DNA from: Lama guanicoe
Taxonomy: Eukaryota
Assembly: GCA_013239625.1 (NCBI GenBank)
Contig: MU053594.1
Location: 1 to 64,000, forward strand
Length of the DNA: 64,000 nucleotides
Direction of reading: 5' to 3'
The position numbers and the translations under genes are program-made. The notes under the pieces were generated by a model. It was not told where the DNA came from. It saw nothing but the letters and a program-made list of their open reading frames with translations, and did not search any database. This document shows positions 24,110 through 27,501 of this stretch, piece by piece; position 1 is the first letter of the stretch; every line of letters begins with the position of its first letter.

Positions 24110-24542
24110 TCAGTCCCCTCTCCGGGCCACCAGGAAGAACATCCCGGTGTAGTCGGACCGATTATCCAAGAGGGTCTCAGCTGCCCGCGGAGCCTTCTCC
24201 AGCTTTTCAATGGTGAAGCCGATCTCCTGCAGGGCCTCCAGCAGGAATTTCTCCTCCAGGGGCAGTGTGGGGAACCACTTGTCCCCCACCATGTAGAAGC
24301 TGGAACCGAAGGTCCCACTCAGCACCAGATGGCCCCTGGGCCGGAGCAGGGTCTTGATGTGGTGCAGGGCATCCCGGCAGGCCCCCAGGGTGGGGCAGGC
24401 AGCCTCGAGGCACAGGGAGGAAATGAGGCAGTCGGCCGGGGGCAGGACCGCAGGTTCCAGGGGCCGTTCTTTCAGGATATCACACTTGAGCACCTGGCGG
24501 ACAGCTTTCCTTAGGCGCTCCTCCTTCTCCGCCCACCTGTCT
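24110..24542 (-). CDS. NNMT-like methyltransferase paralog, exon 3
   Basis: (R)DRWAEKEERLRKAVRQVLKCDI...LPPADCLISSLCLEAACP...LLRPRGHLVL...FYMVG...GMFFLVARRGD*; strong polypyrimidine tract with cccCAG| acceptor; 433 nt including TGA; the spliced CDS is 792 nt (263 aa) with no stops or frameshifts. Confidence 0.95.
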
Positions 24543-25053
24543 CTGGGGTGGAGGGAAGAGGAAAGAGGGGCCAGCTGGGTCATGCTCATCCCGTGGAGAG
24601 CACACATCACCCCTGGCCACTCTCTGCCTGGCACACAGACTTTCAGAATATCAGGAAACCGGTTTTACAGATGAAGAAACTGAGTCCCGGAGAGAGACCT
24701 GGCGAAGCCAGCCGTGGATGCAGTCAAGCCCAGGACCCGTCGACCCTGCGGTCAGCACTCTGTCCAGCTACTGGCTCTCTCCTGGCGGTGCACTGCTGGC
24801 GGGTAGCCTGTTCTCTTTCTGCTGGTCCATGTTTAACACGACGCAGGCAAGTGCTCCCAGAAATGGGAAGTCTGCCTGGAACCAGCTGAGCAAAGCTACA
24901 AACTTTGTTGCCCTCCCCCTCCCCCATTTCTCCATTACCTTTCCTTCCCTGTGTCCCCCGGCCCCTCCACTCAACCTCCTCATCACCTCTCTTGTTCACG
25001 TCTTACCTATACCCGTTCTCAAGATGCCAGCCTCATTCACATATTAAAAAAAA

Positions 25054-25132
25054 TTTTTTTTGTAATTGAGGTATAGTTGATTTACAATGTTATGTTAGTT
25101 TCAGGTGAACGGCAAAAGGATTCAGTTATACA
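25054..25132 (-). mobile_element. Short L1 3' terminus in intron 2 of the NNMT-like gene
   Basis: ttttttgtaattgaggtatagttgatttacaatgttatgttagtttcaggtg. Confidence 0.7.
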
Positions 25133-25803
25133 AGGTCTCATTCATATTCAGGTATGAATAAGGACTAGCACTTAAAGGTTTACTCTGCCTAGCTCCATAT
25201 TTTTTAAAAAGTCATAGTATTAAGCAAAAGGAATAAGAATCTAACGTGCAATTTCAACCATCTGACCTAACTAGGGAGGGTAATATTTGAGGAATGGAGG
25301 CCTATGGTGGACCTTCCCGGTGCTTTGAAACTGAATGAAAATACACAAGATAAGTAAATTCTCTTCTACCTGCTGTGCAAGTTTGCTCTTAAGTCTAATC
25401 TCCACCTCTGGGATCCACAAAAGGATTCCACAAGTTTAGGGCCCCCTGGAGGTTGTAACTGGAACAGCAGGGCACCAGCCAATCAGCATGGAGGCAGCTG
25501 GGCTGCTTCTCCGTCTGCTTGGGCACAGATGTTGGCGTTCTAGGTGGGCTTCCGTGCCTGTGTCTTCCTGGCTCCAGGTTTGTCTCTAGCCAGCTCTTTC
25601 TGTTCCCTCTTTTGGTCTTTATAGGATCATAGCTCACTCCCTCTCCTTCCTTCCTCTTGGGGCCCCACCGACTTGAAGCTCTTCCTTCTTGGTCTCCATC
25701 AGCCCTGCCGTTTCTACATGAGCCCCATGGAAGGTTCTTGATTCAGGAGCTAAGTGAAGCTCCTGGTATTGTGGAAATCCAAAAGCAAAAACAAACCCCC
25801 TAC

Positions 25804-26011
25804 CTGTGTCCTTCAAGCTCACACACGTATTTCACCACCGGGGACCAGTCAAACGCCCCCGGCTCCTTCTTCAGCCACTTCTCCAGCTCCTGGCGGTTCT
25901 TGTCCGTGTAGTCTGAGGCCACGATCTCCTCGAAAGTCTCACAGGCAGAGAGAAGCTGGTAGATGGTGGGCCCAGAGCCAATGTCAATCAGGAGTTTTCC
26001 TTTCAGTCCAC
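25804..26011 (-). CDS. NNMT-like methyltransferase paralog, exon 2 (SAM-binding motif I)
   Basis: [68 protein letters not shown](R); 208 nt; aaacAG| acceptor and AG|GTAGGG donor; the DIGSGPT and FDWS motifs are diagnostic for the family. Confidence 0.96.
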
Positions 26012-27350
26012 CTGTTTTAGAACAGGAACATCCATTCTGAGTCATCAGTCCTAAGGCAGGGCTCTGAGGTCCATGCTTCCGGAAAGGCTATGCTCTCCCT
26101 GTCCCACTGGGAGAGGCTACAGGGAGTTGACCATCTGGAGATGAAAACTCCAGGACAGGGAACTTTGCCTGCGCTAACAGCCCCAGTGCACTGGGCATCG
26201 CGGGTCAGAGGGGAGAGTTAGGAGCAGAGGAGCTTACTTGGGACAAGGAGCAGAGGACTAGCTTTGACATTTCAATTGCCAATTTACTGTAAATAAGTGT
26301 CCAGAGAAGAAATCTGAATCCCAATCTTCACTACACTGGTTTCCCTGTTCCAAGCACTCTTTGCCGATGTGCCTTATGGTGCCACTGAGACCATCTATAA
26401 CATTCCAAAGGTCATTCAGCAAACATTTATCGAGTACCAACTGTATTCCCAGAAATCTGCTTGGCAGTGTGGGGACTAGATGGAGAACACAGGGGCTGCC
26501 CACAGAGCCCTTAGTCTCCCCTTCCTGTTTTGCCTTCTCTCCAGCCACGAGTGGCTGGGTTGATGCAAAATATTAATAGCGTTTGGGCTCTGGCAGGAGG
26601 CTTCCAAGATAAACAGCAAGGCCACAAGGAGGGAGAACTAACTGGACCCCAAGGTCCTGACCAGCTGTGGAACTTAACCTGCTTGCTTGCTCCTGGGCTC
26701 TGCTGCCATGCTGTGTTTGTCTGTTTGTTGTTGTAAAGGTAGGGCATGGTGGCCGGTCAGTTAAGGCAGGCATCATAGGTTTAGGAAACTTTGATGCAGA
26801 AAAATTTTAATTGGGAAGATTCTAGTATCGGGCTATGTCTTCTTCTCATGTGAATTATGAAAAGATAACCACTGTTTGATTTTACTGGTCCAGCCAGCCT
26901 AGCATCTTTCTTCCCTTAGGGGCAAATCAGAGAGCCAGCCACCGGCAAGGTTTTCATGGGTCACAGTGGTGATCAGGCCGAAGAGCAAAGCCCACTCTGA
27001 ATTTGGAGCAAGGCTACCTACACTTTCTGGTGCTCTTGTGGCTTCTTTGGCCACTAACAGGGAGCAGACAGGCCCACGAAGGGCCACAAAGACCGCAGCT
27101 CTTAGGCTGTATTGGAGGAGAAAAATCTGACCTGAGAAATTTTGCGGGCACCTCGCTATGTACCATACGTCAAGTACATCTAAAATCTTCCTGTCAGGCA
27201 GTTCGACACGCTCTGAAGATCCAAAGTTCCTGTTAATTATCTGGCTACTCTCTCCACTCCCACTATTGAAGAAGAGCAGCCTCTGATTTAAAATTTGCAT
27301 GGCCACCCTTCCTCCCACAAACCTCCCCCGGGGTGGAAGGAGCCTGGCAC

Positions 27351-27501
27351 CTGGTTTAAAAGTAGCATTGTAATGTTTTAGCAGGAAATGGAGGACTTCC
27401 TTAGCCATAGGGTCCTGGTCCAACTTGAAGTACTCCAGATAGGACGTGGGTTCAAAATTCGTCTGATAAACATCAGGCTTCTTGGATTCCTGAAGAGCCA
27501 T
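27351..27501 (-). CDS. NNMT-like methyltransferase paralog, exon 1
   Basis: ATG at 27501; MALQESKKPDVYQTNFEPTSYLEYFKLDQDPMAKEVLHFLLKHYNATFKP(G) carries the Y-x3-F-x-P-x2-YL motif typical of NNMT/INMT/PNMT N-termini; 151 nt; phase-1 donor CAG|GTGCCA (weak). Confidence 0.88.

Follow-up and report, generated by a model that had tools for sequence, protein, structure and literature searches.

The closest described relatives of the gene reported here are nicotinamide N-methyltransferase (NNMT; human P40261-type, PDB 2iip/3rod), INMT/TEMT (PDB 2a14) and PNMT (PDB 1hnn). NNMT connects the NAD and SAM pools and is pursued as a drug target; in PNMT, residues E219 and D267 bind the amine. The mammalian family is counted as three members in the available portions of two papers (PMC10844679, PMC10244343). 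D197 and Y20 of human NNMT are termed indispensable for nicotinamide methylation in the accessible text of PMC8956669, and modelling in the accessible part of PMC8436214 has S201 and S213 binding an amide-mimicking group. For INMT, the E167A mutant is given as dead in the sections available from PMC10844679.

The window analysed is a stretch of 64,000 nucleotides from Lama guanicoe (contig MU053594.1). On its minus strand, three GT-AG exons at 24110..27501 encode an intact protein of the NNMT/PNMT/TEMT family, here called the paralogue (Table 1). A check of the spliced frame returned 263 codons followed by TGA, without internal stops and with both introns bounded by GT...AG, so that the exon structure (151, 208 and 433 nt) and 263-residue reading frame proposed in the first-pass annotation stand. 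The number of coding exons, their phases and the position downstream of ZBTB16 are those of NNMT. The zinc-finger exons ending at about 49407, which we take to be ZBTB16, lie on the paralogue's strand about 22 kb upstream of its ATG; two UniRef entries, whose names tie the paralogue to ZBTB16, agree with this identification.

Table 1. Features of the window around the paralogue and the NNMT remnants.
Feature	Position	Strand	Remarks
Contig overlap	1..49	.	exact, 49 nt; start of contig G000:C3616
NNMT intron-2 remnant	6286..6651	-	matches cryptic exons in NNMT models from bat (P0175, P0420) and rodent (P0291)
Weak match, pangolin NNMT intron-2 insert (P0258)	11289..11336	-	9/16 residues, E 6e-4
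NNMT 5'-region remnant	15173..15208	-	matches bear NNMT isoform X3 (P0437) in its alternative first exon, 9/12 residues
Paralogue coding exon 3	24110..24542	-	433 nt including TGA; E166, G196-G199, S200, Y203, T212, D250-Y251
Paralogue coding exon 2	25804..26011	-	208 nt; SAM-binding motif I, D84-Y85, N89
Paralogue coding exon 1	27351..27501	-	151 nt; ATG at 27501; phase-1 GT donor; Pfam match
Alternative first exon start, Camelus isoform X2 models (P0029, P0032)	27756..27803	-	15/16 residues
Upstream alternative first exon, current NCBI alpaca model	29608..29754	-	P0001 residues 1-49, 49/49 identical
ZBTB16 last coding exon region, C2H2 fingers	49407..49700	-	stop at about 49407

All three exons match Pfam PF01234, with E-values of 3.8e-34 (exon 3), 7.8e-34 (exon 2) and 0.00097 (exon 1); exons 2 and 3 score 117-118 bits and exon 1 scores 18.9, the cut-off being 25. 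The protein is identical to Vicugna pacos XP_006207890.2 (P0038) over 263/263 residues. Camelus ferus P0031, to whose residues 1-50 exon 1 is an exact match, shows 6 differences in 263. The upstream first exon of the alpaca model is not conserved in the other orthologues examined, and the Camelus isoform X2 models skip coding exon 1. In alpaca, camels, horse, donkey, cattle, goat and dog the protein carries the plain NCBI name 'nicotinamide N-methyltransferase', contrary to the earlier expectation that it would be annotated only as 'NNMT-like'. A class I methyltransferase fold like that of NNMT and INMT is predicted for the Camelus ferus orthologue (257/263 identical; pLDDT 71), the model giving TM scores of 0.79-0.84 to NNMT and INMT chains. 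Fourteen RNA or possibly-RNA runs share 0.08-0.15 of the words of window positions 24000-27600, a measure of word sharing and not of expression.

Identity to human NNMT is 51% overall; exon 2 is 77-86% identical to placental NNMTs (74% in manatee), exon 1 22-31% and exon 3 40-45%. The paralogue is also one residue shorter than NNMT after Y21 and three residues longer in the last loop. Relationships were assessed with a quick mixture tree and two LG+G4 trees of 33 and 34 rows, long fish and unnamed rows being left out. In the LG+G4 trees the paralogue grouped with proteins of horse, hippo, cattle, dog, cat and platypus (support 96/91 and 95/88) and, one step further out, with proteins of reptiles and amphibians (94/96 and 95/99), outside the grouping of NNMT (itself 100/98-99) and INMT. 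It falls neither inside nor sister to the mammalian NNMT clade, and a single clade of NNMT and paralogue was rejected (p-AU 0.009 with 33 rows; 0.001 with 34 rows, exons 1+3). PNMT forms a branch of its own, and the paralogue lies on the NNMT side of the tree, not with INMT, although mammalian INMT was represented only by this genome's own INMT, on a long branch. These comparisons show, at the level of sequence, a clade separate from NNMT. Intact members were found in horse, hippo, ruminants, canids, feliforms and platypus; of 794 matches, the 120 listed included none from primates, rodents, bats, pigs, afrotherians, xenarthrans or marsupials.

The next relatives are reptile and amphibian 'NNMT-like' proteins (turtle XP_065273244; toad WKR38376.1), which are 48-60% identical to the paralogue and carry G197, E167 and a D-(F/Y) loop. 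They have an acidic residue at position 242, where placental paralogues have A, P or T; a one-residue deletion is common to the paralogue and turtles, crocodilians and lizards. Because the reptile and amphibian proteins have G196, E166, F202 and the longer D-Y loop in common with the paralogue, the split would predate amniotes and the D197 pocket of NNMT would be the derived state. Thus, of the first-pass description as an old tandem duplicate, the old separate lineage is retained but not the derivation as a copy of NNMT. In species with both genes the paralogue changes faster (69-86% identity vs 86-97% for NNMT, 6/6 pairs). Of 137 invariant paralogue positions, 0 are changed in alpaca, vs 32-40 in whale and rhino models, suggesting that the alpaca gene is under functional constraint.

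The SAM-site residues are those of NNMT. The GxGxT motif and the D85-Y86, N90 and D142 equivalents are presumably involved in SAM binding, and the residues listed from the first reading (Y12, F16, Y21, [10 protein letters not shown]84-Y85, N89, C140-D141 and LCLEAA) are all in place. Counts were made over 110 distinct placental NNMT and 48 distinct paralogue sequences, drawn from 342 proteins of 255-270 aa. The equivalents of Y11, F15, Y20, G63, G65, Y69, D85, Y86, N90 and D142 are invariant in 48/48 paralogues, T67 being T or S.

The acceptor pocket differs from that of NNMT by D167E, D197G, A198T, L199F, S213T, Y242A, A247S and N249Y. Position 197 is D in 110/110 NNMTs and in none of the paralogues (G 46, R 2), position 213 is S in 110/110 vs C16 V13 A10 T9, position 242 is Y in 110/110 vs A32 P14 T2, and position 249 is N in 107/110 vs Y in 48/48; L199F is likewise fixed. 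Positions 198, 201 and 213 differ between paralogue lineages, even among close mammals. The pocket residues reported earlier (E166, G196-T197-F198-G199, S200, F202, T212, A241) are present as described; that list had overlooked N249->Y251. The pairing of Y242 with A241 hinges on the placement of the three-residue gap. Together with the trees, the residue counts bear out a separate NNMT/INMT/PNMT-type enzyme with a changed acceptor pocket and not an NNMT orthologue. A roomier pocket is not established, since D197G and Y242A lose bulk and N249Y, L199F and D167E gain it. The equivalents of Y20 and Y204 are kept (Y21, Y203); those of the amide-binding serines S201 and S213 are kept (S200) and conservatively replaced (T212), both varying among orthologues.

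Alignment to PNMT (40% identity) supports the earlier remark that G196 and E166 match the PNMT state (Gly in place of D197, Glu as in PNMT E185) while the E219 equivalent is Ser (S200); D267 is also replaced by Ser (S249), and the long last loop with Asp is a further likeness. The statement that the INMT pocket is not matched requires division: the equivalents of Y24, L164, E167 and Y204, the set given in PMC10844679, are all present (paralogue Y24, L163, E166, Y203), but positions 197-203, 213, 242 and 249 differ.

The first reading raised the question of a true NNMT just left of the window; none occurs beside the paralogue or elsewhere in the assembly, and five genome searches recovered only the paralogue, two INMT copies (contigs C5708 and C12518; 49-50% identical to the paralogue) and the genome's own PNMT gene (C1600). 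The matches on C5708 and C12518 were rejected as NNMT, both being INMT. The exact overlap between the start of the window and the start of C3616, which carries C11orf71 at 47026-47385, makes the ZBTB16-to-C11orf71 interval contiguous. No NNMT exon was found in window positions 1-24000 and 27801-49400 or in C3616:1-50000, in searches that saw simulated exons with 25% substitutions in 19-20 of 20 trials. NNMT is therefore deleted in this genome, where only non-coding remnants are left.

The remnant at 6286..6651 (E 1e-21 and 1.5e-8) is single copy in the genome (1 match/1 candidate); that at 15173..15208 (E 5.6e-5 within window positions 1-24000) is short and of moderate confidence. The 11289..11336 match is repeat-like and of low confidence, a neighbouring part of the insert also matching outside the locus. 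The remnants sit 9-18 kb further downstream than the paralogue, which thus does not occupy NNMT's own position. A weak tblastn match at window 7684-7427 was rejected as chance. A candidate exon 3 at C3616:22675-22809, with a frameshift-aware score of 47 exceeding 98/98 block shuffles (max 43.9), was rejected as an interspersed repeat (24-29% identity; 12/12 candidates match).

That NNMT is present in the animal and missing from the assembly, or that the paralogue has no function and is decaying, is disfavoured and highly improbable. The assembly consists of 55,231 contigs and the interval holds two N runs (95 and 115 nt), but the interval is closed by the contig overlap, the stretch between the 15173 and 6651 remnants, where NNMT exon 2 must lie, is N-free, and no full-length camelid NNMT appears among the database proteins listed. 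Decay is opposed by the intact frame and the unchanged invariant sites. When metagenomes were scanned for NNMT DNA of mammals, 13 loci came up; their identities, 46% at best, show that none is mammalian.

Across species, both genes are present in hippo, dog, cat, hyena and platypus. NNMT looks lost in camelids, ruminants and equids, all of which keep the paralogue; in goat and musk deer it was seen as decayed fragments only, with 15/67 and 8/68 invariant exon-3 sites changed, vs a maximum of five in intact NNMTs (n=110). The paralogue is broken in the whale and rhino models, and no lineage examined is without both genes, so that the losses look reciprocal. According to the available part of one review, NNMT 'is not expressed in herbivores' (PMC5419340), a review-level generalisation; intact NNMT proteins occur in rhino, elephant, manatee and guinea pig. 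An 'NNMT-like' protein formed two spots in cow liver in the accessible text of PMC5347023, and we infer it to be the paralogue.

We regard it as plausible, with about an even chance of being right, that the paralogue is a broad small-amine and N-heterocycle methyltransferase of an old fourth lineage, poor on nicotinamide and standing beside a deleted NNMT. SAM, held as in NNMT, would donate its methyl to nitrogen in small amines and N-heterocycles of dietary or microbial origin, nicotinamide excepted. The acceptor nitrogen may lie near E166, the counterpart of the residue needed for INMT activity in the available sections of PMC10844679, between L163, Y21, Y24, Y203 and Y251. Nicotinamide would be a poor substrate because the nicotinamide-specific set D197/S213/Y242 is absent, and the varying positions 198, 201 and 213 would be as expected of a broad detoxifying enzyme. 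Indolethylamines are not favoured as acceptors, since six candidates in the accessible part of PMC10570959, probably including the toad protein WKR38376.1 (P0481), showed no methylation of tryptamine or serotonin. The cluster of P0481 contains XP_040290831 and not BbNMT; equating P0481 with the characterised RmNMT was considered and rejected. Historically, a duplication before the amniote radiation would have been followed by retention of both genes in tandem, with exon 2 homogenised between them in platypus, and later by recurrent losses of either gene; the NNMT exons of camelids would have gone in two or more deletions, leaving an intron-2 island. Some points sit less easily with a broad enzyme poor on nicotinamide: the evidence on D197 is from the human enzyme, a different context, the retention of Y21, Y203 and S200 with the T212 hydroxyl in alpaca would allow some nicotinamide activity, and the PNMT acids E219 and D267 are replaced by Ser.

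Retention of the paralogue in camelids, ruminants and equids, with no double loss, also fits functional overlap with NNMT. On that view the paralogue methylates nicotinamide, or serves as the same SAM sink, through a different pocket, either gene being dispensable and the losses hence reciprocal. We regard this as the main alternative, and as unlikely. The complementary losses agree with it, as do the Y20, Y24, L164, S201 and Y204 equivalents kept in alpaca and the hydroxyl groups that camelids and bovids carry at the two serine positions; yet horse has Thr/Ala there, D197, S213 and Y242 are changed in all paralogues, the side-by-side genes of hippo, dog, cat, hyena and platypus argue for distinct roles, and herbivores are described as lacking NNMT activity in the review text cited above.

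It is improbable that the paralogue is instead an INMT-like thioether or selenide methyltransferase clearing volatile sulfur or selenium compounds. The four residues shared with INMT are those implicated in dimethylselenide binding or activity, and the predicted fold fits INMT 2a14 as well as NNMT (TM 0.82); however, two INMT copies that look intact are already present in the genome, the paralogue does not group with INMT, and NNMT has three of the four residues yet is inactive on selenium in the available text of PMC10844679. Lower still in probability is a specific endogenous acceptor, such as a trace amine or another amine used in signalling, passed down from the ancestor of tetrapods: the PNMT-like G196, E166 and long D-Y loop conserved from amphibians to mammals and the fixed L199F and N249Y would suit it, but three pocket positions vary among close mammals, several mammal groups yielded no intact copy among the matches listed, and PNMT E219 and D267 are absent.

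In a wider proposal, the paralogue would be an unrecognised fourth mammalian NNMT-family enzyme with its own acceptors, the survivor of the main tetrapod lineage. Camelids, ruminants and equids would have lost NNMT independently and be natural knockouts unable to form 1-methylnicotinamide, and the database 'NNMT' of alpaca, camel, cattle, sheep, goat and horse would be a different enzyme. We offer this wider proposal tentatively, as somewhat short of an even chance. No published description of the paralogue or of NNMT loss was found in the literature covered, most subscription journals being outside its scope. With an older fourth lineage filed under NNMT, expression and association results for livestock 'NNMT' may concern another enzyme. 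The deletion of NNMT would help explain the reported absence of nicotinamide methylation in grazing mammals, and an NNMT-less genome offers a direct and cheap test of the old claim that herbivores do not methylate nicotinamide; natural knockouts would also help to find out which functions require NNMT. The paralogue may further provide a new small-molecule methyltransferase scaffold, with natural variation at positions that engineers mutate in NNMT; five of the 12 active-site positions listed in the accessible part of PMC12402838 are unchanged in it.

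The spliced frame of the window gene comprises 263 codons and a stop, both introns are GT-AG and each of the three exons matches Pfam PF01234 (see table), which upholds the intact three-exon gene of the first-pass annotation. Its placement downstream of ZBTB16 also holds, given the ZBTB16-type zinc-finger exons, presumably ZBTB16 itself, on the common strand. The protein equals Vicugna pacos XP_006207890.2 in 263/263 residues and is 97-98% identical to Camelus proteins, which marks the genome as that of a South American camelid; NCBI calls these plainly 'nicotinamide N-methyltransferase' and not, as had been expected, only 'NNMT-like', and the gene is already in databases as a prediction under the NNMT name. 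Read-through splicing from ZBTB16 into the paralogue gene is likely, because the N-terminus of sheep paralogue model P0523 matches just 3' of the ZBTB16 stop and the paralogue is named ZBTB16 in a pair of UniRef entries.

Features in the window and in other contigs of the assembly
Feature	Location	Strand	Remark
Paralogue exon 1	27501-27351	minus	GT-AG intron after
Paralogue exon 2	26011-25804	minus	GT-AG intron after
Paralogue exon 3	24542-24110	minus	ends in stop
ZBTB16-type zinc-finger exons	end ~49407	shared with paralogue	
Match to N-terminus of P0523	47849-47911		
Match to bear alternative first NNMT exon	15208-15173	minus	9/12 residues
Match to bat and rodent NNMT intron-2 exons	6651-6286	minus	E 1e-21, 1.5e-8
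Single-copy stretch	6280-6620		
C11orf71	C3616:47026-47385		
C11orf71 coding pieces	C47885:432-638; C39505:6-155		
INMT copies, intact-looking	C5708:63-4483; C12518:1619579-1623828		
INMT exon-3 piece	C12518:1613390-1613641	inverted	broken
Lone INMT exon-1 contig	C48817:157-309		

The paralogue has uninterrupted ORFs of 262-347 aa on 1.4-2.0-kb Logan contigs (carnivore- and cattle-type clusters), which would represent spliced RNA since they are shorter than the 3.4-kb gene. The 'NNMT-like' protein in two cow liver spots (PMC5347023) we infer to be the paralogue.

Judged by its sequence, the window protein is not an NNMT orthologue. It shares 51% identity with human NNMT; hippo NNMT shares 88% with a primate NNMT. 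Database searches gave 28 matches among 1332 candidates and 794 among 8000 scored (best 120 listed). Among the matches listed, relatives at 73-84% identity come from horse, donkey, hippo, bovids, deer, canids, felids, hyenas and meerkat; a platypus relative reaches 62%, and reptile and amphibian 'NNMT-like' proteins 48-60%. Canonical NNMT accompanies the paralogue in hippo, dog, cat, hyena and platypus, and accession numbers of the two are adjacent in hunting dog, raccoon dog and jaguarundi-type records. Three trees with NNMT, INMT and PNMT relatives (quick mixture-model, 68 rows; careful LG+G4, 33 rows; careful LG+G4 without exon 2, 34 rows) cluster the window protein with mammalian paralogues (96/91 with 33 rows, 95/88 with 34), which join the reptile and amphibian proteins (94/96, 95/99) on the opposite side from an NNMT clade (100/98-99). 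In the 34-row tree INMT joins the NNMT side together with another reptile/bird set (94/89), a grouping not recovered with 33 rows. A single clade of NNMT and paralogue was rejected (p-AU 0.009 and 0.001), in a test that shares the model's long-branch pull. The trees and this test support the earlier proposal of a separate NNMT/INMT/PNMT-type enzyme, and the topology places the split before the amniotes.

The two platypus genes (P0012, P0330) share 93% identity in exon 2, against 74-80% for the platypus paralogue and NNMTs of other species, a sign of probable gene conversion within a tandem pair. In turtles, exon 2 of P0013 and of its paralogue P0340 is 87% alike, far above orthologue pairs, and both cases suggest recurrent conversion of this SAM-binding exon. 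Three NNMT-family members are described in PMC10844679 and PMC10244343; the non-subscription literature searched neither treats the paralogue as a lineage of its own nor reports a loss of NNMT.

This genome has lost the true NNMT by deletion. Five whole-genome searches, which used the window gene's exon 3 and exon 2, PF01234, a canonical exon 3 and full-length hippo NNMT (to E 5) and were sensitive enough to pick up a broken piece of INMT with 38% identity, returned the window gene, INMT copies or fragments (contigs C5708, C12518, C48817) and PNMT (C1600) and no NNMT, as did a sixth with a walrus NNMT model. The starts of the window and of contig C3616, which carries C11orf71, overlap by exactly 49 nt, so that the ~96 kb between the ZBTB16 stop and C11orf71 form one continuous stretch apart from two runs of N (95 and 115 nt). 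A frameshift-tolerant profile scan of this interval found no NNMT exon (window maxima 28.6-41.6, controls 29-42); a score of 47 on C3616 was rejected as repeat-derived. Exons decayed in simulation by 25% substitutions and 2% indels exceeded a score of 45 in 19/20, 20/20 and 20/20 trials, and those decayed by 30% and 3% did so in 12/20, 19/20 and 20/20. Thus, of the suggested tandem duplicate beside NNMT, the old separate lineage stands and the second copy is missing from genome and interval.

The former NNMT gene was located through odd NNMT isoform models carrying intron-derived parts (30 tried, most without match). The bear and the bat and rodent matches lie in the expected order; with such queries a control region gave short chance matches (E 1e-4 to 1e-2). 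We infer removal by at least two deletions. The intron-2 stretch, conserved in camelid, bat and rodent despite the absence of NNMT here, may be a regulatory element retained for a neighbouring gene. The pieces on C47885 and C39505, which jointly repeat the C11orf71 coding sequence, are probably assembly duplicates.

Among the NNMT matches listed (120 of 179; at most 15 members per cluster, several clusters unopened), canonical NNMT occurs in pig, peccary, hippo, whales, rhinos, carnivores, pangolins, bats, primates, rodents, afrotherians, xenarthrans, marsupials and monotremes. Among these matches ruminants have only exon-3 fragments, in which 8/68 (musk deer) and 15/67 (goat) invariant sites differ, compared with a maximum of 5 in intact NNMTs (n=110), and equids and camelids have none; for equids and cattle this is suggestive of NNMT loss, not proof. 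Draft gene models of whale and rhino show a broken paralogue, with 32-40 invariant sites altered or absent, and none of the best 120 of 794 matches is an intact paralogue of primates, rodents, bats, pigs, afrotherians or marsupials.

The acceptor pocket was aligned in 110 placental NNMTs and 48 paralogues, all distinct and drawn from 342 proteins of 255-270 aa, many being close relatives and the counts therefore non-independent. SAM-site residues are invariant across both sets. D197, S213 and Y242, invariant in the NNMTs, are altered in 48/48 paralogues; L199F, Y203F and N249Y are fixed, and positions 198, 201 and 213 vary. D197 and Y20 are described as essential if nicotinamide is to be methylated (PMC8956669), modelling has the amide-like group bound by S201 and S213 (PMC8436214), and 5/12 human active-site positions (from PMC12402838) are unchanged in the window protein. 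Its E166 corresponds to INMT E167, required for activity (PMC10844679), and to PNMT E185, and the PNMT E219 and D267 positions are Ser; alignment thus confirms the PNMT state of E166 and the Ser at E219 noticed earlier. Turtles, crocodilians, lizards and amphibians share G196 and E166 as well as the long D-Y loop, which makes these the older state. Because N249Y may replace Y242, the pocket proposed earlier as roomier need not be larger than that of NNMT. The predicted structure of the camel orthologue (pLDDT 71, with the first 25 residues poorly modelled) resembles chains of NNMT and INMT at TM 0.79-0.84, and is uninformative on the acceptor.

The domestic-horse reference protein (P0041/P0040) carries Arg in place of G196, a pocket residue invariant elsewhere, and Leu in place of S162, noted against E. 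przewalskii P0043 and donkey P0003; it may represent a damaging allele. Pig and peccary NNMT (P0387, P0277, others; 10/110) have His at D167, a substitution also made in an engineered variant of human NNMT.

With about even confidence, these sequence features suggest a SAM-dependent methyltransferase of small basic nitrogens: the methyl would pass from SAM to a nitrogen held by E166 inside an aromatic pocket, acceptor range would be broad and tuned by lineage, and nicotinamide activity slight. That the paralogue stands in for NNMT, an idea kept alive by the reciprocal loss pattern, is rather unlikely. A review (PMC5419340) states that NNMT 'is not expressed in herbivores', a remark which fits an unreplaced loss; with intact NNMT in rhino, elephant, manatee and guinea pig, gene loss cannot explain it for all herbivores. 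The deletion makes this old physiological statement on herbivores and nicotinamide testable.

Beside methylation of a broad range of basic nitrogens, a thioether or selenide methyltransferase is doubtful, a specific endogenous amine as acceptor slightly more so, and an artefact highly improbable. Six candidates, probably including a toad relative, were inactive on tryptamine and serotonin (PMC10570959).

The two INMT copies have identical exons 1-2 and exon-3 pockets differing at positions 167-168 and 197-203, and are either a recent duplication or two alleles. Environmental metagenome contigs (loci L032-L043) carry bacterial-type NNMT/PNMT/TEMT genes at 24-28% identity.
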